From Ancylonema sp. (Eukaryota), in assembly GCA_050230475.1 (NCBI GenBank), contig JBFLGF010000080.1, positions 1-64,000 on the forward strand: a stretch of 64,000 bases of DNA. The letters are read 5' to 3'. The notes under the pieces are model-generated. The model saw only the letters and a list, made by a program, of their open reading frames with translations. It searched no databases and had not been told where the DNA came from. Shown piece after piece: positions 6,373-64,000 of this stretch (the stretch's first letter is position 1; every line of letters starts with the position of its first letter). The translations under genes were made by a program, and so were the position numbers.

Positions 6373-9096
6373 GTGTGAACTCAACGTTCTTCAAATGATT
6401 TGTAAACCCAAATGTATTGTCTTGTATGTGATGTGGCCATAGATTCAGTAATTGATTCGTAAAACCGTTAGAGTATGTATCGTGCCGGCCTGGTTTATTG
6501 ACCCACCAAACCCGGGATGAAAATAACAAACAATAATTCCAGCAATTTGCCCACCCCCCGAGCAATTATTTTTCAAGCCACAACAATTAGCCAAACAACC
6601 TGTCGATCATTTTTTTCACATATGACCCACCCCGGTATCGATTAAATTAGCTCCTAAATCCCGAAAGCTCGGTAAAATACCAAATTATTGCCTTATTTAG
6701 GCCTCAGATACCGTACTGGCGAGAGATGATGACTTGAATTTAATTCCGAGATGGCAGGATCGGATCATCACAATTGATTGGAACTTGGCCGCCCGGATCG
6801 CGTGACCAAATATTAAAACAATATTTCTACCGGAAAAGGGTGGATCTTTTTTTCTAAAAGTAGTTCCCCGAGTTTTTTATGTTTAGCATGCACGGAATAT
6901 TTACAGAGTCTCAAAAAAACGAGAAAATTCCGCGCTGACCTGATGCGAAGAACACGGACGACAGTTGAAGGTGGGACGGCCAATGTTGACCCCCCACGCT
7001 TTTGTCTTATTAGTATCAATTACCCCCCACCCCCTTCTCCCAACCAAAAAATAAACAGTTTTCGTTTTCGTCACTTAAGCTAGGGGAATGCTCTAGGGCC
7101 CACGGCCTTCCCCCAGCCTAATTGTAACAATTACGTACATTACCCTAGCGACTTAATACCCCAACCCGCCAACGGGGGCTTTTTTTCCCGGACCCTAAAT
7201 GGACACAAAAACATCCCTAAAAATACACGCTCTTGTAATAGCTAGTAGGAGCCCCTAGTATCTGCGCCTAGAGATGCCCTTCACGACGGATGCCCTTAAA
7301 GTGGGTATGAACTCCCGGCGTCAAAGCGGACGGCTCAAGATCGAAGCCCGCAACTCAGCTCGCCCGAGCGTGAGCCCGTAATTGGGCTAGGGGATTCGAG
7401 GGCCTCGAAGTTTGCCTTCCGGAAAAAAACTTGTTTATTTAGAGGTTGCCGCCGCTTTTACCCCGGGTGGTATCACACTTGAAGAAGTTTAGGATAATAC
7501 CCCACAAGTGAAAAAAAAACGAATAACCGAAGGTACTTGATACCATATATGTACCCCGCCCGCCCATAGATTTTCGATTTTTGTGTATCAAGTTCATTCC
7601 ATAGTTTTTTTTCGGCGGCACGCGTGCGCAAATCTTGCGCACGGTGTGCGGCCAAGGGCGTTCAAATTATGTTATTATCCAATGTGGGAAGTACCTCCCC
7701 CCGGGGGGGGGGAGGCACTTCCCACACCCCCGGGGGTGCGAGATGTTTCCCAAATCTTGAAATGTAATTGGTAAACCGGTTTCAACGGTGGCACTATAAT
7801 ATTTGGGCCTGAGAAGTTATATCGTACTACCTGCAGTGTAAAACGGTAAATACTCACTACATTTAGTCAAATTTCGACGTCCGAAACTAGATTACTAAAA
7901 TTATCCCGGTGCGGCACGCGTCCGCAAATGTTGCGCACGGTGCGCGTCCAACTATAGTTACTACCAAAAAATCGAAAGTCATTCATGAATATTGTTACCC
8001 CACCCCAGCCCAAAATAATGCATTAGTGGGTGATTAGATTTTGCCCTGCGGTAATCAACGAACCAAATCCGTCCGATGCATCGATTTCCCACCAAATTAA
8101 AAAAAATGGTTTTCGTACGATATGATACGACATACAAAAAGGAAACATGCGGGCGGACGGGAGTTTGCCACGTAGGTAATAATTAAGTAGATGTGCTACA
8201 CGACAAAATAGCACCACGGAACCACGGGTAATGACATGGGTATTCTCGGTATCACGGGGTGGATCCTCGTCTCGTTTTATACGATTATAATAATTCCAAT
8301 TTACCCGGATCAAGTGCTTTGGATCATTATAATATTTCGGAAATGCATTGATTATTTGGTGAATTATTTGGTGAAGTATTTGTTTTTGAAAATCTCTGGA
8401 TCATTATCTCTGGCTTGTACGGTAACCTCTAATAATCTCTAATTGCCCCCAAATACCCTTCACACCCCCGAACCAACCTCTAATTACTCAACTGTAAGAT
8501 CGGGAGGTGTGTGGGCTCTAGGCATGAACGTAGCCAAATACTTGATCCCAAAATCAGGAATTACGAGGCTTAAAAGCTTCAGGAGCAACATAGGAATTTG
8601 TATTTATGACCCGGTTTATTGGCCAGGAAAATAAATAATTGATTTCCGGTATATTAAACCTGACTAGTACGATGTAGTAACCAGCCCTGTTGATTGCGAT
8701 CGCCCTCCGAAAACGTCACACAAATTTGAAACGCTTAACACTATCGAGGTGAAAGGCTGAAACTCTACAAACCGCCATACGGTTCCTAACTGCTTTCGAA
8801 CCTCTAAATCACCACTCGGAGTGGGTTAGGAACTGGTTCAAGATATCTCGGCCGTGCAATTATGCACCACGGAGAACTCGTAGTCTCAACTTGGTCCATA
8901 TGTGTGTGGCATGAACTCGTGTTGGCCCCTACTTCCTACCCGTTTTTCTTTACCCGTGGGGTAGCCTACCGATCCCCCTACCGCGTGGTCGAAAAAGGGA
9001 TACCTACCCGTCGCGGGTCGACCGCACGTGTTGACCATACCCAAACCGGGTAGGAGGTAGGCTACCCGCTTTTCATCCCGTCGCAAACTCACCGAC

Positions 9097-11050
9097 GAAC
9101 TTGCGCGTTGGGCACTCCTACTCCGGGAGTATGAATTTGAAGTGATTCATCGCCCCGGTGTTGTAAACTCCAATGCCGACGGGTGCAATCGTTGTCCATT
9201 ACCATAGACAGCAACTGACAACCATGAGATTGAGACATTATGGGAGAAAACACCTTGCTACTACATGCAGACTTCACCCACGGGTTTAAGTGCACCATCA
9301 TACTTTGTGAGTTTTCACCAAGGTACACCACAACCAGAGGATGTCAAAGTGGACATTTGGGATGATAATGCCACAATGACACTTCTCAAAACTCATGCAT
9401 ACCTACCAGAATCGACACCACAACAAAGAGACCGTACATACCGACGGGCTCTCAAATACAAATGGATGGGGAGATATGTTTACAAAATCCCTACCTCTGG
9501 GCACATGAAAATCGTCCACCACCACCAGAACGAATTCCTCTAATCAAATACTATGCACACACGATACGGTCATTTTGGGGTGAAACGCGTGCTCCACGCT
9601 TTACAACAAGATTACTAGTGGCATGGAATGGGTGATCATGTAATCCAAGTCATCAAAGAATGTCCTGCATGCTCCCGCGCAAAAAAACAAAACTCAACCA
9701 TTACCAATTCGGTACACCCATTACCAATTTGGGGACTCTTCTACCGTTGGGGAGTTGACGTCGCTGGACCTATGCCAGAAAGTACACGTAAAAACCAATA
9801 CGTTATGATCTGCATTGAACATTTCACCAAATGGGTTGAACTTATCGCCTTACCTGACAACTCTTCAAAATCAGCAGCACATGCGTTACTCACTCATGTC
9901 CTTTCTCGTTTTGGAGCCCCTGGTGAAATCATCACCGACCAAGGCGCGGAATTTGAAGGGGCATTCACCGACTTACTTGTCGGACATCGAGTTACACATC
10001 GTACTGCAGCCCGGGAACACCCACCATCTGATGGGTTAGCAGAACGCGCATGGTTCAAACGATGAAATTATCTTTAAGGAAAATCCTCCTAAAAGAACAT
10101 CGCAGAGATTGGGACATTTACCTACCATATCGCCATGGGGTACCGCATGACAAAACAAGCCTCTACCGGGTATTCACCATACTATTTGTTGTATGGACGA
10201 CATCCTATATTTCAGGCACAAATAGAGGCAGCTGAACATGACCCCTTACCTGAGGCACTCAAAGAATTGCCAAAATTCATTCTGAAACGCATTAAACTTT
10301 TTGAAGTGGTCATGCCTCTAACAATGCGCAACCTTGCCATTGCACAACAACGGGACAGACATCAATACTTCCGTGTACACATTGGCGCATGGGCACGACC
10401 TCGCCCTCGTCTCCTTAAACATCAATATGTCTATGTGAAACGTCAAACCAAAGGCACACTTGACATCAAAACACATCCATAAATCCTCCGGATAACACAA
10501 ATCCAACCCTCCGGAAATGTGCAATTACAGGGCAAAAATGGACGCCGCATCTGGGAACAGATGAAAAACATTTCACCTTGCAGTCTTTCCATCAAAGATG
10601 ATCAGATCGACACAGATCTGTTCAACAGTTCTGATTCCACATTCTGCAGACAATGCGGTTCACGTAACGATGGAAAACATCTCATTTTGTGTGATGACTG
10701 TAATGATGGCTACCACATCTATTGTCCCGGCTCAAATCAATATCTGAAGGTGCGTGGTTCTGTCCCGACCACAAGGGGGGACGCTGCTCCTAAGACCCAG
10801 TTCCTACACTACCATTTCGCAACTGGGGGGGGGGAGTGAGAGCAGCACAATACCACACAATACCATATTGTGACTTTATGAGATATTACCAACATTCATC
10901 GATACGAGATTGTGACTATATGAGATGAGCAACATTCAGAACTTCGAGAAGAAGAAGTTATGAGGACATCAAAAGAGAGAACTCCTGTCCAGAGAGAAGT
11001 TTAAGTAAGGAGAATATTATTCCGGGCAGCCGACTTCAAACAACACGTCA
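9097..11050 (+). mobile_element. 3' half of a decayed Ty3/Gypsy LTR retrotransposon: RNase H end, integrase, PHD finger, PPT (10825-10836), 3' LTR (10837-11050)
   Basis: ELARWALLLREYEFEVIHRPG..NADG (RNase H end); HTRYGHFG...CPAC zinc-binding; RWGVDVAGP, IITDQGAEF, DGLAER integrase core; C4HC3-type PHD pattern; G-rich PPT then TGA...TCA LTR. Contains stops and frameshifts. Confidence 0.9.
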
Positions 11051-16766: not shown

Positions 16767-19501
<2,735 letters not shown>

Positions 19502-21806: not shown

Positions 21807-22269
21807 ATAGGAATGGATCGGGCCTAACTATGGATCGGGCCTTATGGATCGGGCCGGAATGGATCGGGCCCAGCACTATCATTCATAGTTGTGTCCAAGT
21901 GTCTCATGTGCTCTCCCTATTGCGATAAGTACGGGAAGAAACCGTACTACCTCTTGTGGGTCGGGGCCCGACCCACTTGAAATCTTTCGACTTCGTTGAC
22001 TTGTTCATGAATCTAAGAGATGCAAGGTGTAAATGCGATACAACGGGATCTTCTTCTATCTAGAAATTATTATGATTACCCAATACGGTTGGGACCACTG
22101 GATTTCAAGCTACTAAGAATCATGATCTGGATTGTCAAACATGAACTTGAAAATCTCATAGAAGATTGGATGTGTCTATGCTCAGAGGCATGACGTGGTT
22201 GGGTCCCGACGCACCTCATTTGGAAGGGGTTCGAATTCAACATGTTATCTCCCCAAAGAATTTCGAGCA

Positions 22270-22805
22270 GTGAGTAAAGCATGTGCTGCTGATTTTGAGG
22301 ACTTGTCGGGTAATGCGATAAGTTCAACCCATTTGGTAAAATGTTCAATGCAGATCATAGCGTATTGGTTTTTACGTGTACTTTCTGGCATAGGTCCAGC
22401 GAACTCTACTCCCCATCAGTAGAAGAGTCCTCGAATTGGTAATGGTTGTAGTTGGGTACGTCCATCAGCAAAGTTGGTTTTTGCGCGGGAGCATGCTGGA
22501 CATTCTTTGATGACTTGGATTACATGATTACCCATTCCATGCCACCAGTAATCTTGTTGTAAAGCGTGGAGCACGCGTTTCACCCCAAAATGACCGTATC
22601 GTGTGTGCATAGTATTACTCACGTACCGGTTTTCCAGTCTTGGTGGTTGAAGGCGACTGCGGGAATCTTTTGAATGGTTTTGGTCCATATAATCACAAGT
22701 GCCAAAGTAAAAGGGCAATTGCAAGGTGAATACTAAGTGTGAGAACCTTAAGAACATCCCAACTATCTCTTAAATTATCTAACACTGTCTCATTGGTGCT
22801 GCTCA
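22270..22805 (-). mobile_element. Internally deleted Gypsy fragment: LTR-like segment joined to the integrase N-terminus
   Basis: MHTRYGHFGVKRVLHALQQDYWWHGMGNHVIQVIKECPACSRAK...IEHFTKWVELIAL is nearly identical to 9550-9890. The upstream segment starts tgagcagcac and contains gcagtcgccttcaacca, resembling LTR 10837-11050. Confidence 0.8.
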
Positions 22806-52609: not shown

Positions 52610-55600
52610 ACTTTATAGAGACAGCCTTGGTCAACATGTATGCAGCCTGATCTTCACTCTTCACAATCGGAAGTGTGGTTTACTTCTTTGATACTCTCTC
52701 CCATATTGAATGATATTTGATCTCAATGTGCTTGGAGCGTTTGTGAAAGACAAGGTTCTCAACAAGTTTCAATCAGCGTTCATTACCCCCTAGCAGCAAC
52801 CCACACCCCCCACGAGTACCCAACTCCTTATGCATTTGGCTCAAATAAATGGCCTCATTTCCAACACTACGTAGAGCCACATACTCACTCTCGCAACTAG
52901 AGTGTGTGATTGTTTCCAGCAACCCACTCTTCCAGCTGACAACAACACCTCCAATAAGAAACACATACCCAGTTCTCCCCTTCCTAGTGTCCACATCGTC
53001 ACCATGACTTGCATCAGAGTAACCTAGAACTGGCAGATCACCCTGCTCATACATAAACCCCAAATCGACATTTCCCTTGGGATGCTTCAAAAGTCTCTTT
53101 ACCCCACCCCAATGCTGGTCTCTTGGTTGCTGTTTGTATCGACACAAATAGTTAACAGCCGCTGCTAGGTCCGAACGTGTGCCAGAAGTAAAGTAGAGCA
53201 GACTTCCCATGTCACACATTTAACCAACACCCTCAATGCTATAAAAATCAGCAGCAGGTCCAGAGTTTGCACAAAATTTCACCCCCAGCTCAAGTGGGGT
53301 AGAAACAGAATTGTATTCACTCATCCCGAACTTCATGAGCAGGTCCATTGCATATTTATCTTGAACTAAGAACACATTGCCATCAGACTGCTTGCGAATC
53401 TCAAGCCCTAACAGGGACTTTGCCTCTCCCGGATCTTTCATATTGTACCACTTGCCTAGCCCACCTTCACACCAAAGATGTTATCCAGCCTGCTGCACAA
53501 GAAAAAAACGTCATCGACATAGAGTGCTAGATATAGTGCCTCAGGTCCCTCTCCCATAATATAGAGACCAAAATCTGAAGCAAGGCGATGAAACTGCATC
53601 CCCTTCAGCACGTCGTCGATATGTTGATTCAAACCCCTAGGTGCCTGTGTTAGACCATACAAACACCGAAGCACCAGCCACACCATGTTTTCTTCACCAG
53701 ACCCACACGCGCCATCTAGAGCCTCCATGTACACTTCTTCTTCCAAGGGTGCATAGGGGAAATCTGTTTTGACTTCCATCTGGTGCATATGAAGAACCTT
53801 GGAAGCACCCATGGCAACAAGCTGATGAATGCTCTCAAGTCGAAGATGTGGCGAGAAGGTCTAGTCAAAGTCTACCCCTTCCACTTGGCTGAACCCCTTA
53901 GCCACCACTCGTGCTTTGAATTTTTAAACTGATCCATTAGCATTCTTCTTGATTCTGAACACCCACTTTGACTTTACAACCTTCCTTCCCTTCGGCCTTG
54001 GTACAAGTTTGTAATCCTCGATTTCTTGCAGGCTTCCCATTTCAGCTCACATTGGAGCCTGCCACTGAGATTTCTCTGGACTATTGAGAGCTTCTTGCAC
54101 AGTTTCTCGCGTTTTGAACTCAGCGTCCAGGTTTGCAACAAAAGCAGCAAAAAATATGTTGGAGTGAACACCTTTATTTTTTCTTGCGGATCGACGCACG
54201 GGCGGAGTGTCAGATTGTGGGTCATCGACAGAAGTTTCATGAGGGTCATCGGCGAGGGCAAGAGGATTGAGAGGGGTGGCATCATCTGGATACCATCGAG
54301 GACCGTCTTCCAACTGATCTTGGTCGTCATCGTCACCACTCGACTTGCTCACAAATTGTGGAAGGTGTGCATTATGAAGAGGAGGAGAGCTTAGAAGTTG
54401 TGGTTATGGATTTTCCACAGCATGAGGGATCTCTTCATCGACATAATTTATATCGTCATATGCAGGTTGCCGACTTCCAAAACTGCCCCCTCCCACTCGA
54501 AAAGTGCCTCCTCCCGCTCCTTGATCAGCTACATCCAGATCTGGCCATGACATTTTGGACACTTCCACTGGCTCATGCACTTTTGCTTTCTTACCAACTT
54601 TCTGTCCTTTCCACCAGCTTGATTTGACAAATTCATCAAAATCGGCATGACGAGCACCAACATTGTGAACTTTGTTTGTTGCAGGATCCTAGACTCTATA
54701 GCAAGGACTATCTGAGTTTCACCCAACCAACACACCAAGCCATAATAGTCCACTCATTCTCCCAGTGCGGTATTGCTTCTCTAGGCGCACATACACTTTG
54801 CAACCGAAAGAGCGAAGGTGATCACCTTTTGGAATTTCCCTAGACCACATCTCCTTTGGTGTTTTTGGAAGAACGCTGACTTGGTATCGATGTCTCGGGT
54901 ACGAAGCTAATGAAATTGCTTATGCCCACAGACTAGGAGGAAGTTGCATGTGCAAAAGCATAGAACGTGCTCTGTCTTGCAGTGTGCGATTCATGCGCTC
55001 CGTGATTGCATTGCCTAAAGGAGTATTTGGATGAGTTGTCTCATGTCTGATCCCTCTGTTCTTGAGCCACTTCTAGAGGTCACCATCGATGAATTATCCT
55101 CCTCGATCTGATCGCAATTTTTTGACAGGTTTTCCAGCTTGCCGATCCTAGATTGCGATCCACTGCTTCAGACGAGGAGCTCCATCATCTTTGCTTCGAA
55201 GTGTTTATACATAGGATTTGCGGCTGAATTCATCGACGTGCACCATGTTGTACACTCCACCCCCTATCGATGCTCTATTGATCGGCCCTGCCTAGTCCAC
55301 CGACACTCTTCTCAGGCAAACGTGCTCTCCTGCACTAGCGTCTCGACGAGGATGAGGTTTGTCGTGTGCCTTCCCCAGCGTGCACCCTTCACAATTTTGA
55401 AAAATACCTGAAATGCCTCCTTCCAATCCTCTTACAATATTCTCTCGTGCCAAATTTTTGAGCACTCTCTCATTTGCATGCCCGAGTCTTGCGTGCAGGA
55501 GATTGATTTCGACAGCTGCTACAACGGCTTCTCCCTCGATTTGCCGCTGATGTCGAACCGGAGTGCATATCAGAGATTTTCGGTATGTCGACGTTTCCTG

Positions 55601-56245
55601 CAGAGTACATACCTGCTGCCCAGATTCGTTGTAGACTCGAATAATGCCACCTACTTTTCCACTCCAAGTGTACGATCATCCTGCTTCTCTTGTTCTGACT
55701 GCTGAACAAATTTATGCGCATGCCACAAATGTACAGACACTTCCGGAGGGTTACTCCTCCACATTCCCCACTACTTCACACGCACACTTCCGACGAGATG
55801 ATGCATGATGCATGAGGGATGTCTTCGAGATTTTTGAAGTGGCTTTTATGCCCACTGAAACCATCGTCGAAGAGAAAACCATTTTCTTCATCATCATGGT
55901 CTGCAACATTTCCTTCATAAATCTCAACGACGTCAGGTTCTCCATGGCCACAACTTTCATCATCATCGACTTCGCCAACAACTGCGATCTTTCGCCGTGT
56001 TTGCACCCCTTTTCTCTACATGCGTGGAGCATCGTTCTTCTTGTCGAAACACGTGAATTCTACATGACCGATTGCTCCACAGTGTTTGCATTCATCAATT
56101 TTATTGGAATAGTCTGTGGTGTAGTGACCTGTCTCTCCACAAGTAGAGCAAGAATGCCCTCCATTAGATCCACTACTTCCATCTCTGCCTCCATGTCCAC
56201 CTCTGCTTCCACGGTTATCCCCTGAATATCCCGTGACTGTTCCCC
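52610..56245 (-). mobile_element. Decayed Ty1/copia retrotransposon (gag zinc knuckles, protease remnant, integrase, RT, RNase H), truncated at its 5' side by an LTR
   Basis: CSTCGETGH and CKHCGAIGHVEFTC knuckles; LRSDRGG and ERMNRTL integrase; KWVFRIK..KARVVAKGFSQVEGVDF, LYGLTQAPR, LALYVDD RT; GYSDAS, SSCESEYVA, KRSKHIEIKYH RNase H. Copia domain order; many stops and frameshifts. Confidence 0.92.
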
Positions 56246-56844
56246 TATCATGACGCTAGAGATCGCTAAGGCGAAACCCCTCTAGATTGTTCACAAACCC
56301 CTCTAGATTGATACTCTGCTATAACGAGAGTATTCGATATAACGACTTTCTAGAATTAGTACTTTGCACTAAAAAGAGTGAATTACGAAATTTGTACGAC
56401 TTGAAAATAACGCGAGGCGTATTTTCCGAAGTTTAGAATCCAGCAGTCTTCAATAAATAGTTGCGTGTCGATTTTGTTAAAATCACAAGTCTCTTTCGAC
56501 TTGTCGATAATCCCGGCGATTAAATCCAGCCGTAGAACTAGAGAAATATCTCGCGCCGTTTTCATCGGAGCGCCGAGATTAATTGTAATGTTCTAGAAGC
56601 TAGCATGTCGCTATCTTCGACAGTTTAACTCTAGTTAACTCTGCCGGTTAGCACCGTGCAACAACTATGTGATAAAATAAAAAATGTACTTTCAGATCTG
56701 CCAGCTTCCGCTATCAGATTGCGCTGTTAAGAAATCTCTCCCAACAATCTTCTGTGTTATCTGAATCCTTTGCAATTTTGTGAATATTACATCCCTTCGC
56801 TTGCGCGACTTCGCAACGTGCTCGTCTTCCGACTCAGCCTAACG
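56246..56844 (+). repeat. ~600-bp LTR, copy 1 (termini mutated)
   Basis: High visual identity to 57230-57828; internal caataaatag TATA-like motif. Confidence 0.8.
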
Positions 56845-57032
56845 GTTGTTAACCTTGATAGTCTGCACCATACTATCTTGTTTGCTTCATAGTATTTTCA
56901 CAGACTTGTGTACTATAAATCATATGTTAGCTCGCCCTCGGCGTTGAGTAGTGAATTTCACCAGACCGCTGAGACGTGTGATATATATAATATTGATATC
57001 TCAGCAGAGACTCAATCTGTAATACTACTTAG

Positions 57033-57227
57033 TGAGAGCAACCGGACCACCAAGTCCACCTGAGACCCTTCGATCACCTACGAACATCATCGATACCAAC
57101 CCGGTCAACATCGTCGCTACTCCACCGCGAGCATTACCACATGCATCATTATGAGAAACATCCGGGAACAAAGGCGACAAAGTATGAGGAATATCAATTT
57201 AGGCGGCCGACTCCAAACAACACTTCA
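57033..57227 (+). repeat. Short LTR-like segment related to the Gypsy LTR at 10837-11050
   Basis: Starts TGAGAGCA and ends ggcggccgactccaaacaacacttca, versus TGAGAGCA ... ggcagccgacttcaaacaacacgtca at 10837-11050. Confidence 0.6.
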
Positions 57228-57229
57228 GC

Positions 57230-57828
57230 TTTCATGACGCTAGAGATCGCTAAGGCGAAACCCCTCTAGATTGTTCACAAACCCCTCTAGATTGATACTC
57301 TGCTATAACGAGAGTATTCGATATAACGACTTTCTAGAATTAGTACTTTGCACTAAAAAGAGTGAATTACGAAATTTGTACGACTTGAAAATAACGCGAG
57401 GCGTATTTTCCGAAGTTTAGAATCCAGCAGTCTTCAATAAATAGTTGCGTGTCGATTTTTCGATTTTGTTAAAATCACAAGTCTCTTTCGACTTGTCGAT
57501 AATCCCGGCGATTAAATCCAGCCGTAGAAATATCTCGCGCCGTTTTCATCGGAGCGCCGAGATAATTGTAATGTTCTAGAAGCCAGCCTGTCGCTATTCT
57601 TCGACACTTTAACTATAGTTAACTCTGCCGGTTAGCACCGCGCAACAACTTTGTGATAAAAGAAAAAGTGTACTTTCAGATCTGCCAGCTTCCGCTGTCA
57701 GATTGTGATGTTAAGAAATCTCTCCCAACAATCTTCTGTGTTATCTGAATCCTTTGCAATTCTGTGAATATTGTGTCCCCTCGCTTACGCGACTTCGCAA
57801 CGTGCTCGTCTTCCGACTCAACCTGACA
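57230..57828 (+). repeat. ~600-bp LTR, copy 2 (T[G>T]TCA...TGACA)
   Basis: Direct repeat of 56246-56844; ends TGACA, the inverse of the TGTCA start preserved in the copy at 1-69. Confidence 0.85.
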
Positions 57829-58238
57829 TCCGTCAGCCAGCCGGTAAGATTGCAAACCATTCTTTGCAATCTGTGTATGTTTGTATTTGATTTGAGTCAT
57901 CTGAATCTATTGCTAACGCACTTTCTGAGCCAGCTTGTTAATCGACTGTAATTTCTTACATCGATTCGCTAACGCTCTCTCTGAGCCAACAAGCGTGCGT
58001 GTGTGTGTCAAACATCTGTCGATTTGCCCGCGTTCGCTCCGAACCGGCAATTTCATTTGTGTGTGTGTGTGTTTGTTGTCGCTCGCTCCGAGCCAGCATT
58101 TGTTGTTTACATCTGTCTGCTGACAGAGAGAGTCTAGAAGAGGGAAATTAACCACACTGGAGATAACTAAATGTGCTGAAATTGTCGATCGACCAGCTGC
58201 ACTAGCTGTCGACAAAAATTGTCCACGATCACCGAACA

Positions 58239-61200
58239 ATGGACATAATTAATATCGAATCACGAGCTGCACTAGCTGTTAATAACTATATTCATACTGA
58301 TATTGACAATACAGCTGCACCAGTTGTCAATATTTCGGCATTCCATTTGCCAACCACTCTTCTCGATAACGATTCTACAACCCAAGTAGAATTAAAAATT
58401 GAACCCAACAAATTGACACGTTATACATCTGAACCTGAACATTCTTTGGAACGCCTACCTACATGCTCCATTAACTTGAAACCTGTTTTGATTACCGACA
58501 CAGACGACCACATCGTCGACACCACAGCACCTGTGGCTGGACCATCGACCATTGTTTCCACTACAACGCCACCAAGCGCTGCAACAACATCCATTTATCG
58601 ACACAAGATAAAAGGTGGGACAGACTCTACCATGGCCAACCCAACGCCACTACCAACATATACTGGAGAAATTGGTGTCAAACAAGACGAGTTCATCGAT
58701 AGTTTGAGACAGTTAGACCGAACTCAACAACGCACACAGCGTATGGGGCATGTACAGTGGGACTCAGTACTTGCAGCAGATCAGTATATGAAAGGAGAAG
58801 CTCATCGAGAATGGCAACAGTTTTACGTGAAAATCGTGGTACTACTCCTACGGAAGATATTTGAGATATGCATCGTGAACATAATTCCAATGTCGCATAT
58901 TATCGTCTCCAAGGTAGATTGGATGGACAACATGCACCGATCAAACCCACAGTATCGGCAGCAGAACCAACAGAACTGGAACTGTTCATCACTACTATCA
59001 AAAATCGTTTTCGAACTTCAGCTGCAGAATTTGTCACTCAGATCGAAACATTTTCAGCACGACCCAACGACAGTGTTGCAACCACATTTGCACGTTTTAA
59101 CGAACCCGCAACAATTGTTCAAGAGGCAGGAGCCATGACAGAATAACAACTGGCTAGGAGGTATCTACCACATATTCCTCTACCACTACAATCCTATATC
59201 GACGACTGGCATTTCCGTGAATGAGAGGAAAGGTATTACAAGAATCCACCGGATCCTCCTATTACACGGAAGGAGATTATGGAGAAAGCCAACAAGGCTG
59301 AATTTCTACGTATGAAACAAGACGCTGAGAACCGCGCAGCTGGGATCACCAGATCTCCTAAACTACCTTCATACACTCCATCTACTCCATACAATGCTCC
59401 TAAACCAACAGGCGTATTGACACCACGACAGGATAACAACATGGAATGCTATAACTGTCATCAGACCGGACACCTTTCGCGTGACTATCCTGCACCAAGG
59501 AAACAAAACAACTTCCAGTCATCAGGTTACCGGTAGTCTGATAAAAATTACAAAACCAACCAATCCTCAAGATCACAGTTTAAGGGAGGTGCGTACGGTA
59601 CTGAAAACATACAATCTTTTAAACTACGACCTCGCCAGTTTGATGCAAAATAGTACACCGCTCATGCATTCTGTGAATACTACAAAGGGAAACACCACAC
59701 CCGAGACCAATGTCAGAAACTTGCCAAGGCACATAACTTACTAACTCTCAGTACACCACCCACTGCAGATACTCAACCCAAACAAATCGGGTGGAAGACT
59801 CCTGAGACGCAGACAAGTTACCTGGCTATGCAAGTAGACGACTTGGCACGCCAACGCGAATTCGAAAACATGTCGCACCAGACAACGGACTCTGAGGTAA
59901 TTGACCATACCATTCCATGTCAATACCTAATGTCCACCAGACGTTCGAAAAGAGAAAAAGAAACAAGCGGCTATTAAGAAACATACCCAATTTCATGTTC
60001 CTGTGGTCACTATCAGCTGTGATGCAGTTTGATACACCTGTGAATGAAACGCAAGTACCACCCTTGCCTGAAACTACACCAATTCATTATCAATCTGATC
60101 CTGAACCAAGTAGTTCTACCACTCCATATCCGGAGCCACATCTAGAGACATTGCTTGAACAACGAACAAGAGAGGGGGAGGATTACGGTCGCAGACAGGG
60201 ATACAGTACAAAGATGCCAGACTCATTTGTACCTGATTTTCCCAACATTTTGGAAGCTGGCACTACAAACATGAACCAGTTCCATAATACTGCTGTCCCT
60301 CCACCCATGCCTCTACCACAAGCACAAGCTCTTCACGACATGCTTCATGACCATGTCAATATTTTGCGTGCACAACTGCAGATCGCAGAAAAAGCACGAG
60401 ACAACGCGGCTGCACTTGTCAGTTCCATGCAAGAACCTGCAGCCCAATACACCACCAGTCAGGATTTCACCACTTCCTCAACACGAAACTCTCAGGACAT
60501 CAAATACGGTATTGCACTCCTTCGCAACAACCGTGGGGTGTTAAAAATCATGAATGAGAAACCAAACAAGGTGGTAGTCGACAGTGGTGCCATCAAAACC
60601 ATGATTGGCAGAATCATGGCATCCAAACTTGGAATCACACCAAACATGTTGAAACCTGGAACACCATACATCACCGCATCTGGTGTGCTCAATAAATCAG
60701 TCTCGGCAACCAAGGAAAAATTTTCCGATTACGATTGGCAGCGGCACACCCAATCCAACCACCATTTATATGGAACTCCACATGTCTCCATCCAGAGAAT
60801 TTGACGTCTTACTGGGCAATGAAATTCTTGGACCAATTGGTGGATACTCTGACCCTTGGCAACATCTATTTTTTTATAGGGCAGATTGGGAAAGAGGTGA
60901 GTTATGCCTAGCATCTTTACCACTCACAGTCCGACATCAATCCAACAAATTAGAAGTGTATATGACAGATAGTGATTCACCATCTCTGACCCTCACACCT
61001 TGGGATCGTGCTGCAGCTCTCCAACAGAAGGAGAAGAAGGCAAAAGCAGACCAATCTACCAGAGACAGTGAATTTGCACGTGCTAGTCCACGCCGTTCCA
61101 TTCAATTCGGCTCTCAACCAGAAGAGGCCGTCTTGCCTACCTTACCACCGGTCAAAGTGGCAGCACGTGATTATGAGGATAACTATCCACCTACACCTGG

Positions 61201-63775
61201 CTCCAAACGCATTGACCCTCCACAACGGACTATGGGGAAATACAAGAAACTGCGGATACACGTCACCAATCAGTAGTACGCAAACGATTGTATGCTGAAA
61301 TCGAGGACAAAATCAAGCGCAAGTGCATTCCCCAGGCACTTGAACAAGCAAAGTTTGTAGATTTCAACCAACCCATCTCATCTCGCAGCAGTGTGTGCCA
61401 AACATTCTTGCGCTGGTGGATTTGAAGAAACTCCTACTCCTATGGAATTAGATACATCAACCATTCCATCCTCAGACATTCCAACCAATCCTACATCTCG
61501 CCAACATCCTCTACTTGCTCCTGACACTCAGTTACTTTCAACCATGCTTTTGGATACAGACCTTTCTCGAGCTACCAACGACACCTTCGAACCAGATGAG
61601 CTACACGAGCTCACTGAAGACGAATTGCGAGACCGATACCACGTTATGATCTCGCAACAGAATTTTTTTCGAACAGTCGTCCTCAAAGCAGCAAAAACAG
61701 AGGCACAGGCAACGATTACACACAGAATCACACAAGTCATCAACGAAAAAAAATCGGTGCTTCTCTGCAAGGATGTGCAAGCTGAACTTGACATCGCCGC
61801 AGCCCGGCAGGAAGAAAAGAGCAAATGGATCCAGCAGTATGATCTTCTAGTGGACAAACTGCATTCCAAATTGGAAGACAAGATGCAGGACGTGGTCAAA
61901 CTTCACGCAACGCAAGAAGTTCGCCAAGAAGCTGCTCGTCTGGAACACAGGCTACAGATGGAAATCGGCAAAAATGTGCTGCGAGAAGAACAGTCGACAG
62001 CAATTCCCCTTTCTTCACCTACTAGCTCCGCACCCTCAACATCCATCAGTCCTGCACTTTCTCCTGTTGCAATCGCCCCTACCACCAGTGGGGGTGATAC
62101 CATGGACACCTCGGAGGCCATAAAACCTCCTACAACTGCTGCGCGCAAACGAGAGGCGTATTCCACTCAACCAATTTCCCCGAGTGAAGTACGTCCCGCC
62201 AACCGGCAGCGCATGCAGTGAGCATCACCAGTCGCGGCAACACATCGAGTAGAGACCTACCTGATGGATAGTCGGCGGTCTACACCTACAACTCCCAGCT
62301 CTTCATCCCAGCTACCCACGACGGAGGACCCAGGGCAATCCATCGTCAAAACGATGGAGAATGAAGCTGTGAAGAACAAGCCACTCGGTGCATACGCTCA
62401 CCTGCGCGACCCCAGAGACAAAACCGATGTTGCTCAACGACTGGCACGCACAAACACCAGTGTGTCAGATTTTACCTTCCGCCAATCATTCGTTCGACCG
62501 GCTATGGCGCATCTCCTTAACATGGGCGCCATCCCGAAGGCCTTCTCCGGAGCACACCACAGCAAGTTGGCAGATTCCATTTACGCGCCAAGTATCCTGC
62601 ATTACGGAGACGCGCACTACCAAAACATCAGGCGAAATGGTCAAATTTATATGCGGGAGGCACACCTCAAATTGCGGCATGACTACCAACCACTCCCATC
62701 ATCCATCAAATGGTGTGGTCCTACGTTTCAAGGAGCATACGAACTTCCCCGAACCATCATTTCTACGCAACCAGCTTATGAGGCTCGAGGCCTGCACATT
62801 TACATCCCCTTCGGAAACCTGGAGATTGTGGAGATCTGTCTTGAGGGAGGCTCCATCATGTCCCACGTCACGCCGCAGACGGACTGCATCCACACCAAAA
62901 ATCGCTACCGCCAGAAGCTGCGACAACTGCAACTCCGCTTTCCAGACCAGCTGCCGAATTTTGCTATCGAACACTGCGATGTAATCCTGTCTACGAGCGT
63001 CACCGACACGACAACGGAGCAGATGGACGCACTCTTCCGTTAGAAAGGCCCCTTCGACGTGGTCGGTGGTAACAATCACACAGAGGTGGAGCGCACCTAC
63101 ACTCCTCTACGTGGCGGTCAAGACCGTCGTCTCGCTCCACTCCTCGCTGTCATCAAATGGATACACTACAACGCACGGCTCGCACAATTATACCCGGTGC
63201 TCATTTTTTACACCAACATCGGCACACCCGAGGACCCTCCTTGGGTAGACGACCTATACCACGTGACGCGTGCATTCTTTGGCAACGCTGCGGAGCTCCA
63301 ACCACTCCAGTTCTAAGGCCACGTCCATCGCCCAACCAAGGTGTGGACCAACTGCATTACACCACGCGAGCTGGAACTTGCACAACCCAACAGGCAGATC
63401 CGGGAGCCGCTGCAGCACCTTCTGCAACCCGGGCACACTGCACAAATCATGACTCTTCCCGACCTGGTGAACCACAAACTCAACCGCATGGGCAACCGCC
63501 TGGCTGTGTTTCCCACTGTGAGTCCTTATCTCTAGACATGCGACTATACGCTGCGATCGGATGGACGACCCGGCATCGGGATGCTGTTCGATGCACCATC
63601 TCAGCAGTATGTGCCACCTTCTCCATTCGAGATCGAGCAAGCCCTGGGACGACCTGTGGGCTACACAGCTCATCGACGTATCACCGACGCCAGGCGCGCC
63701 TCCCACCTGGGCCACATGATGGACGGACGACTCATCATGTTCCTGGCGGAAATCCTTCAGGGCACCAAACCATAG
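58239..63775 (+). mobile_element. Decayed retroelement polyprotein: gag with zinc knuckles, retropepsin protease, coiled-coil region, C5 DNA-methyltransferase-like domain
   Basis: CYNCHQTGHLSRD (59447) and a second degenerate knuckle CEYYKGKHHTRDQC (~59670); VVVDSGA (60571) plus FDVLLG protease motifs; ORFs from 60683 to 63775 share one frame, broken by stops. No RT is visible before the window ends. Confidence 0.8.
62780..63760 (+). pseudogene. C5 cytosine DNA methyltransferase-fold domain (retrotransposon DNMT3-like type) with degenerate catalytic motifs
   Basis: Motifs in order: GLHIYIPFGNL (I), GPFDVVGG (IV region), IFYTNI (VI), HRPTKVWTN (VIII), EIEQALGRPVGYT (IX), RASHLGHMMD (X). Three internal stops. 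Identified by motif recall, not by a database search. Confidence 0.78.
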
Positions 63776-64000
63776 GGATCACCCCTCACCTCGGAACAAA
63801 GGTATTTACCAACCTCAACTCTGGGGGGGAGGGACACTAGATCCTCTGGTCAACAATTTTCAACCAAACCTGTGAGAGTCGCATTAGCGGCGGCTCTAGC
63901 TTATGGGAAAGCATTCATTCACAAACACAGATACACGCTGGAAGGGTTGGAAAGTGCAAGTATGAATATGAAGGAGTACAGGAGTTGATCAGGATGCATA

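Follow-up and report, generated by a model that had tools for sequence, protein, structure and literature searches.

KnitGypsy-Dnmt3 from Klebsormidium nitens carries a Dnmt3-type domain in the polyprotein of a long terminal repeat (LTR) retrotransposon, with conserved key residues and a ratio of non-synonymous to synonymous substitution rates (Ka/Ks) lower than 0.2 (de Mendoza et al. 2018, PMC5890265); published systems are described here and below from excerpts of the cited sources. The domain was without activity in yeast, a result called inconclusive, and the same paper proposes self-methylation of the cDNA and calls the role of retrotransposon DNA methyltransferases (DNMTs) unclear. Key residues are also conserved in the Symbiodinium domains SymbioDIRS-Dnmt3, which methylates CG in yeast, and SymbioLINE-Dnmt (PMC5890265), and EpiLTRs carry a DNMT4-related domain (bioRxiv 10.64898/2026.05.21.726589). 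The window studied here, that is, the whole stretch of DNA analysed, comprised 64,000 nucleotides of Ancylonema sp. (assembly GCA_050230475.1, contig JBFLGF010000080.1, positions 1 to 64,000 of the forward strand). Positions 58206-63775 (+ strand) are one decayed copy of a retrotransposon from an abundant family, and the last domain of this copy is of the Dnmt3 type with its catalytic residues replaced. As judged from the alignments, the catalytic losses are a trait of the lineage and not decay private to the window copy, because relatives at 30-38% identity carry the same replacements, and a pseudo-enzyme lineage maintained by selection is very probable. With regard to its role, our preferred reading, to which we give a probability of roughly 0.42 on sequence and model evidence, is that of a non-catalytic DNA-binding module that would cover the cDNA of the element itself, free of S-adenosylmethionine (SAM). 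The domain and its motifs were located as follows.

62771..63772, + strand: Dnmt3-type C5-methyltransferase fold, assigned by profile and model, with the catalytic residues replaced (pseudo-DNMT); 334 codons, with three stops in the window copy
62789..62824, + strand: degenerate motif I (SAM-binding loop), GLHIYIPFGNLE
63047..63088, + strand: motif IV; the catalytic Cys position is Thr (63080-63082), and the clade pattern is G-N-[WY]-H-T-E
63200..63223, + strand: motif VI; the E-N-V position is Y-T-N in the window and Y-T-H or Y-N-H in relatives
63317..63352, + strand: motif VIII; His and the first Arg are kept and the second Arg is Thr (63335-63337)
63626..63727, + strand: motifs IX (63626-63667) and X (63692-63727), with scaffold residues kept

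Profile comparisons and structure modelling both indicated that 62771-63772 encodes a Dnmt3-type C5-methyltransferase fold. The stop-masked protein scored 140.8 bits against a profile of 79 homologues built without the query and its clade, as compared to 0.5 bits for the best of 200 shuffles; these homologues had first been gathered as matches of the query, and the test is not fully independent. When the six frames of the window were searched with this profile the domain was the only significant match, and motifs I-X followed one another in canonical order in the domain alignments. The original prediction, made from the letters of the sequence, had read one frame through stops at 63041 (TAG), 63314 (TAA) and 63533 (TAG) and had recognised in it C5-methyltransferase motifs in canonical order; frame, stops and quoted peptides were found in their places, and the homology lay beyond chance. 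The profile of alignment A2 had DNMT3A as its best match among PDB sequences (E=2e-25). A model obtained by AlphaFold2 (AF2) with an alignment of 71 rows (pLDDT 91.7, pTM 0.90) matched DNMT3A best in Foldseek (E=6.7e-13, TM 0.64) and DNMT3B best in VIA-align (Z 22.6, root mean square deviation 3.5, 276 aligned residues). Z-scores of this model were 21-23 for DNMT3A/B, 18.4 for M.HhaI, 8.6-9.4 for DNMT3L (174 aligned residues) and at most 9.2 for unrelated Rossmann folds. The C5-methyltransferase assignment was in this way borne out by Dnmt3-type matches in the profile, in AF2, in Foldseek and in VIA-align. The inactive DNMT3L-like module proposed from the letters stood as far as shared catalytic losses are concerned, but the likeness to DNMT3L is an analogy only, the structure being nearer to DNMT3A/B, and the roles suggested with it (decoy, reader, or partner or inhibitor of host methyltransferases) are putative.

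A phmmer search of 1.84 billion (1.84e9) representatives gave 94 matches to the domain at E<=0.001. PF00145 was present in 34 of the 49 homologues scanned, and reverse transcriptase (RT), RNase H or integrase domains in 23 of them; the named ones among 10 looked up came from Closterium (3), Scenedesmus and Cymbomonas. No Pfam family matched the window domain itself at E<=1, either as P0001 or as its four open pieces, and there was no direct match to PF00145, so that PF00145-based surveys would miss such domains entirely. Word-index protein searches at near and longer lengths gave no match, and the same type of search among shorter proteins (30-46 aa only) returned one fragment, P0103. The comparison with PDB sequences by phmmer yielded DARPin and glycoprotein matches only, which were rejected as chance. 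Locus scans found none in viral contigs and none in metagenomes with P0001; locus L001 (alignment A4) was rejected as chance, the DNMT profile not matching it.

Residues were counted over 79 other homologues, after P0053 (a repeat hit), P0050 (the upstream segment), P0082 and P0085 (frameshifted or misaligned) had been dropped. The Glu of motif VI and the arginines of motif VIII have roles in catalysis. That Glu was found in 70 of 71 other homologues and is Tyr in the window (63209-63211), and the second Arg of motif VIII, present in 76 of 77, is Thr. The Cys of motif IV, which is the nucleophile (PMC2965745; C710 in PMC6316889), occurred in all 62 other homologues covering the site, and the window has Thr there, in agreement with the original prediction that this motif lacks its catalytic Cys. 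The ungapped register was adopted for motif IV on the strength of a Trp that is followed by x-Cys in intact members and by His-Thr in both P0005 and P0012; the gapped alternative of HMMER sets the neighbouring His at the Cys position, and neither register gives Cys. Motif VI, in contrast, had been given as TNI, and the ungapped register corrects it to YTN (63209-63217). The SAM-binding motifs I-III were eroded: for motif I the window has PFGNLE, P0005 PWANAD and P0063 PLCQPE, and the Asp/Asn of motif III (59 of 61 other homologues) is Ser in the window and missing from all five clade rows aligned there (Ser or Arg), which is not what an active enzyme displays. The statement that every motif had been replaced thus held for Cys, Glu, the second Arg and the SAM motifs, but not for the His and first Arg of motif VIII (63326-63331), the Phe-Gly of motif I, the Pro-Thr of the target-recognition region (TRD) or the residues of motifs IX (Glu/Gly) and X (Arg/Gly/Asp), which are retained together with Trp/Asn. 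The description of the changes as multi-nucleotide is for the most part correct: they require a minimum of three bases from the window codon back to Cys, two to the motif VI Glu and two to the second Arg, but only one to the motif VI Asn. With these residues the domain is predicted not to transfer methyl groups, and it probably does not bind SAM.

The same replacements appeared in proteins well outside the family, in the patterns G-N-[WY]-H-T-E, Y-x-H and R-x-T. P0005, P0012 and P0093 were 38, 30 and 30% identical to the window, and their motif IV reads GNWHTE, GNWHTE and RNWNQE, respectively; P0012 also presented Y-N-H in motif VI and R-Q-T in motif VIII. Over the clade, the Cys site was Thr in four of five members (Gln in the other), the Glu site Tyr in three of three and the second Arg site Thr in two of two. 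P0003, P0005 and P0012 shared 11 identical residues in 43 common columns, four of them the derived N, H, T and E; the remainder being 7 of 39, four derived identities would arise by chance with a probability of about 0.001 (simple arithmetic from 7/39). The clade including the window had a support of 0.999 in a FastTree tree of 76 sequences and of 99.2/100 in an IQ-TREE tree of 30 sequences from which the motif columns had been removed. Four C-terminal fragments (P0006, P0008, P0038 and P0034), which do not cover motif IV, grouped with the window in the FastTree tree (0.93).

The specificity of these residues raises the alternative that the pocket was rebuilt, His-Thr-Glu of motif IV and Tyr-x-His of motif VI forming a new site for a modified base, a metal or SAM-independent chemistry. 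N-[WY]-H-T-E recurs in three lineages at 35-48% identity, Y-x-H occurs in P0003 and P0012 and in the family contigs described below, and the His, Glu, His and Tyr align to positions of the cytosine pocket of DNMT3A. We consider this improbable: in P0093 the His-Thr is replaced by Asn-Gln, P0103 departs as well, and residues of this kind can be fixed for stability. A second alternative takes the fold as a structural leftover, kept only as a folded domain that the polyprotein or particle needs and with no job related to methylation. Root-to-tip distances of 2.1-2.5 in the clade versus 1.2-2.0 in the listed intact homologues point to relaxed constraint, and the SAM motifs vary freely inside the clade. 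The strongest shared residues, however, lie in the former active site and not only in the core. In the frame only a probably shared stop follows the domain, so that its loss need not disrupt the frame. We consider this explanation as improbable as that of the rebuilt pocket.

The trees also bear on whether the dead domain may act as a partner in the manner of DNMT3L or DRM3, binding an active Dnmt3, whether from the host or from an intact sister element, and stimulating, redirecting or blocking it. Intact-motif elements (P0007, P0009, P0032, P0055 and P0094) were the nearest group to the clade in the FastTree tree (0.973), but the IQ-TREE tree with the motif columns removed did not resolve this sister relation. 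Motif IV is followed by the helix that carries the heterodimer surface in DNMT3A; a hydrophobic pair is preserved in this helix (window LL, P0005 FF, P0093 FI and P0012 VF) but may simply pack in the core. Inactive paralogues that aid active ones are known in DRM3 (PMC2965745) and Dnmt3b3 (PMC7608744). The full TRD region is kept in the window, unlike in DNMT3L, as the numbers of residues aligned to DNMT3B and DNMT3L given above reflect. A partner role seems rather unlikely.

Variation among the contigs of the family was used to separate features of the family from those of the copy. On positions 62200-63900, 4454 contigs of set X1 and 763 metagenome contigs of set X3 were mapped, contig depth not being equivalent to copy number; codons were checked on 63030-63420 with 926 X1 and 180 X3 contigs, for variants reaching at least 25% of the depth. 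The three stops of the domain are not family-wide: that at 63041 was absent from 94% of the X1 depth and that at 63314 from at least 85%, and P0002, P0004 and P0097 read through 63533. Nevertheless, no variant reached 25% at 63080-63081, 63209-63214 or 63335-63337, the codons of motif IV H, T and E displayed synonymous third-position variants only (at 25, 66 and 40% of the X1 depth, respectively), and the His of motif VI Y-x-H was present in all X1 and X3 depth at 63215. Among family-variable sites, 11 of 21 were synonymous and 13 of 21 were third positions, as compared to 24-30% expected (P=0.006 for the synonymous excess at an expectation of 25%, P=0.026 at 30%). C>T (71) and G>A (52) were the commonest of the 338 differing places on 62200-63900 in X1, as expected if the host methylates the family.

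The window copy itself is dead, with its three domain stops and upstream frameshifts, and at 10 sites at least 90% of the X1 depth differed from it, seven of these changes being non-synonymous and three synonymous (13 of 31 private sites were synonymous in a wider stretch, among the sites listed). Such a copy might be suspected of being an active Dnmt3 that has decayed privately. This is very improbable and already largely refuted, as the family contigs offer no alternative codon at the three replaced positions and the same replacements are found in P0003, P0005 and P0012. An intact family consensus at PC, ENV and RxR, which would make the changes private decay, was sought, and instead the Cys, Glu and Arg losses proved common to the family and to the relatives at 30-38% identity.

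Since the replaced residues are the same in the domain and in its distant relatives, a role other than catalysis, for instance in binding the DNA of the element, is the likely reason for its retention. In the DNA-binding module that we favour, an ancestral element would have carried an active Dnmt3 domain, and one lineage would have rebuilt the active site once, with the fold kept under selection. The domain, being last in a Gag-protease polyprotein, could be packaged into the particle, where the His-Arg of motif VIII and the target-recognition region may hold the cDNA without methylating it; H789 and R790 are DNA-binding residues of DNMT3A (PMC6316889), and their equivalents are kept in the family according to the alignment. 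Covered in this way, the new copy would be protected from methylation or sensing by the host, or would be aided on its way to chromatin. We also consider, tentatively, that a captured Dnmt3 may have become a pseudo-enzyme with a rebuilt and conserved pocket (His-Thr-Glu, Tyr-x-His) and a dedicated counter-silencing factor, acting as SAM-free shield or reader of cDNA or as a dominant-negative partner of the host Dnmt3.

Several observations count against a selected DNA-binding lineage. The equivalent of R792 is lost, and the TRD Thr (78 of 78 other homologues) is changed in four of the seven full clade members covering the site (P0006, P0008, P0038 and P0034), so that little or no DNA binding may be left. 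Outside the family the clade consists of short ENA protein fragments (103-237 aa), all of which could come from one genus, and only P0012 among them spans motifs VI and VIII. The excess of synonymous sites is modest (P=0.05 at an expectation of 33%) and, being drawn from thresholded contig depth, is a rough stand-in for the ratio of non-synonymous to synonymous changes and not a real dN/dS. Only contigs at least 80% alike and variants of at least 25% were visible, which leaves room for rare Cys-bearing copies. The AF2 model depends on an alignment in which most homologues are intact; modelled from its single sequence, the domain reached a pLDDT of only 32.6. Finally, no RT or integrase was linked to the window copy, tblastn giving nothing after 63781 in a copy that breaks at about 63870 within a window ending at 64000.

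The remaining parts of the element preceded and followed the domain on the same strand, in the order gag-like region with zinc knuckle, aspartic protease, linker of about 1.5 kb and Dnmt3-type domain.

58206..59975, + strand: gag-like region (PF00098, E=1.7e-4, 22 bits, above the curated cut-off), its frame broken by stops and frameshifts
59447-59491, + strand: zinc knuckle in the gag-like region
60550..60900, + strand: retrotransposon-type aspartic protease (PF13975, E=3.7e-5; PF13650, E=2.3e-4; both below the curated cut-offs)
60900..62353, + strand: linker in frame with the methyltransferase fold, with Pro/Ser/Thr-rich stretches, a charged, probably helical segment and stops at 61274, 61358 and 62219
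62354..62770, + strand: conserved segment preceding the domain, of unassigned fold; P0050 is 70% alike over the matched stretch, and many family contigs cover the segment
63773..63775, + strand: frame-ending stop directly after the domain; P0002, P0096 and P0097 end at the same residue, and P0006, P0098 and P0099 at an equivalent place
63823..63873, + strand: purine run (63823-63834) and point of family-contig divergence (63867-63873), where 19 and 18 X1 contigs have loose ends, as do contigs of X2 and X3

The protease presented D-S-G at about 60571-60591 and a frameshift near 60800; it was 34% identical over 47 aa to that of the Dnmt3-Gypsy polyprotein P0010, and tblastn with P0028 matched it at 60725-60925. 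From its second half (60800) one frame ran to the stop at 63773, interrupted at 61274, 61358, 62219, 63041, 63314 and 63533. The linker had no Pfam match, and neither its part at 61361-62218 nor the segment at 62354-62770 matched a PDB sequence. The stop at 63773 is probably common to the family because the three close fragments that cover the end, out of three, terminate at the same residue. Family contigs ran on past 63867-63873 with sequence absent from the window, a likely break at which the window copy was cut, and no repeat was shared by 57500-58400 and 63760-64000 in a terminal-repeat search of this copy without 3' end. The G-rich purine run, 16 codons past the stop, reads LGG in the frame of the domain, and LGG(G) also occurs shortly after the domain in the homologues P0038, P0040, P0046, P0061 and P0091; as judged from its sequence, the run might serve as a signal for frameshifting or read-through or as a polypurine tract. 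Beyond the zinc knuckle, at 59672-59713, a second pattern of Cys and His (CEYYKGKHHTRDQC) may represent another, degenerate metal-binding motif in gag.

Homologous Dnmt3 domains occupied two places in Gypsy polyproteins, either before RT (P0010 and P0037) or between RNase H and integrase (P0015, P0019 and P0022), P0010 having the gag-protease-DNMT order of the window followed by RT, RNase H and integrase. These Dnmt3-carrying polyproteins, whose named hosts include the zygnematophyte Closterium as well as Scenedesmus and Cymbomonas, both chlorophytes, often had a C-terminal PHD finger. The window also contained Gypsy integrase remnants (H2C2, rve) at 9088-10836 (+ strand), followed by a PHD finger, and at 22248-22769 (- strand), as inverted repeats 92-98% alike. 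They matched the integrase-PHD tail of the Dnmt3-carrying polyproteins, up to E=1e-82 with P0019, and no DNMT domain adjoined them within the window; from this resemblance, they could be the missing 3' part of the family of the element or of a sister family. A Copia remnant (RVT_2, gag_pre-integrase) lay upstream of the element at 53459-55675 (- strand), adjoined by a repeat with a period of about 984-992 bp (93-99% alike, 56240-57827) directly upstream of the element. The rest of the window held exon pieces of F-box/JmjC, PAPS reductase, P450, GH47 and KH proteins amid retroelement debris, in keeping with an intron-rich eukaryote, and a perfect self-complementary stretch of about 170 bp at 18701-18873 that is probably a simple dinucleotide run.

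An abundant lineage in which the fold is kept and the chemistry replaced allows catalysis to be told apart from binding as the possible value of the domain, and relatives with intact motifs form its natural counterpart in a paired test. If the counter-silencing reading is true, the domain would be an element-encoded counterpart of DNMT3L and DRM3, and the fold rather than methyl transfer may be what some retrotransposons keep. Our literature search, whose coverage of subscription papers was incomplete, did not turn up any retrotransposon DNMT lineage described as catalytically dead, and excerpts of the later literature on retrotransposon DNMTs mention no inactive ones.

As in KnitGypsy-Dnmt3, the Dnmt3 domain of the window element has a gag zinc knuckle and an aspartic protease upstream. 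Unlike in that element, as its published description goes, the clade of the window has Cys, Glu and the second Arg replaced and the SAM motifs eroded; moreover, the frame ends right after the domain, with no RT or integrase linked in the window copy. By sequence, the window element descends from the Gypsy-Dnmt3 kind but is a variant and not a plain member, because the key residues are not conserved. SymbioDIRS-Dnmt3, SymbioLINE-Dnmt and EpiLTRs resemble it as retrotransposon-borne C5-methyltransferase domains but, from what the excerpts describe, belong to other element classes. DNMT3L, Dnmt3b3 (PMC7608744) and DRM3 (PMC2965745) likewise present a Dnmt3 fold without the Pro-Cys of motif IV and kept by selection, DRM3 having also lost the Glu of motif IX and the Gly of motif X that the window keeps, and DNMT3L matching the window model only at Z 8.6-9.4. 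These, however, are host genes, whereas the loss in the window is independent and took place inside a mobile element, and by analogy the likeness to the host pseudo-DNMTs DRM3 and DNMT3L/Dnmt3b3 would at most be one of working mode, the origin being independent.

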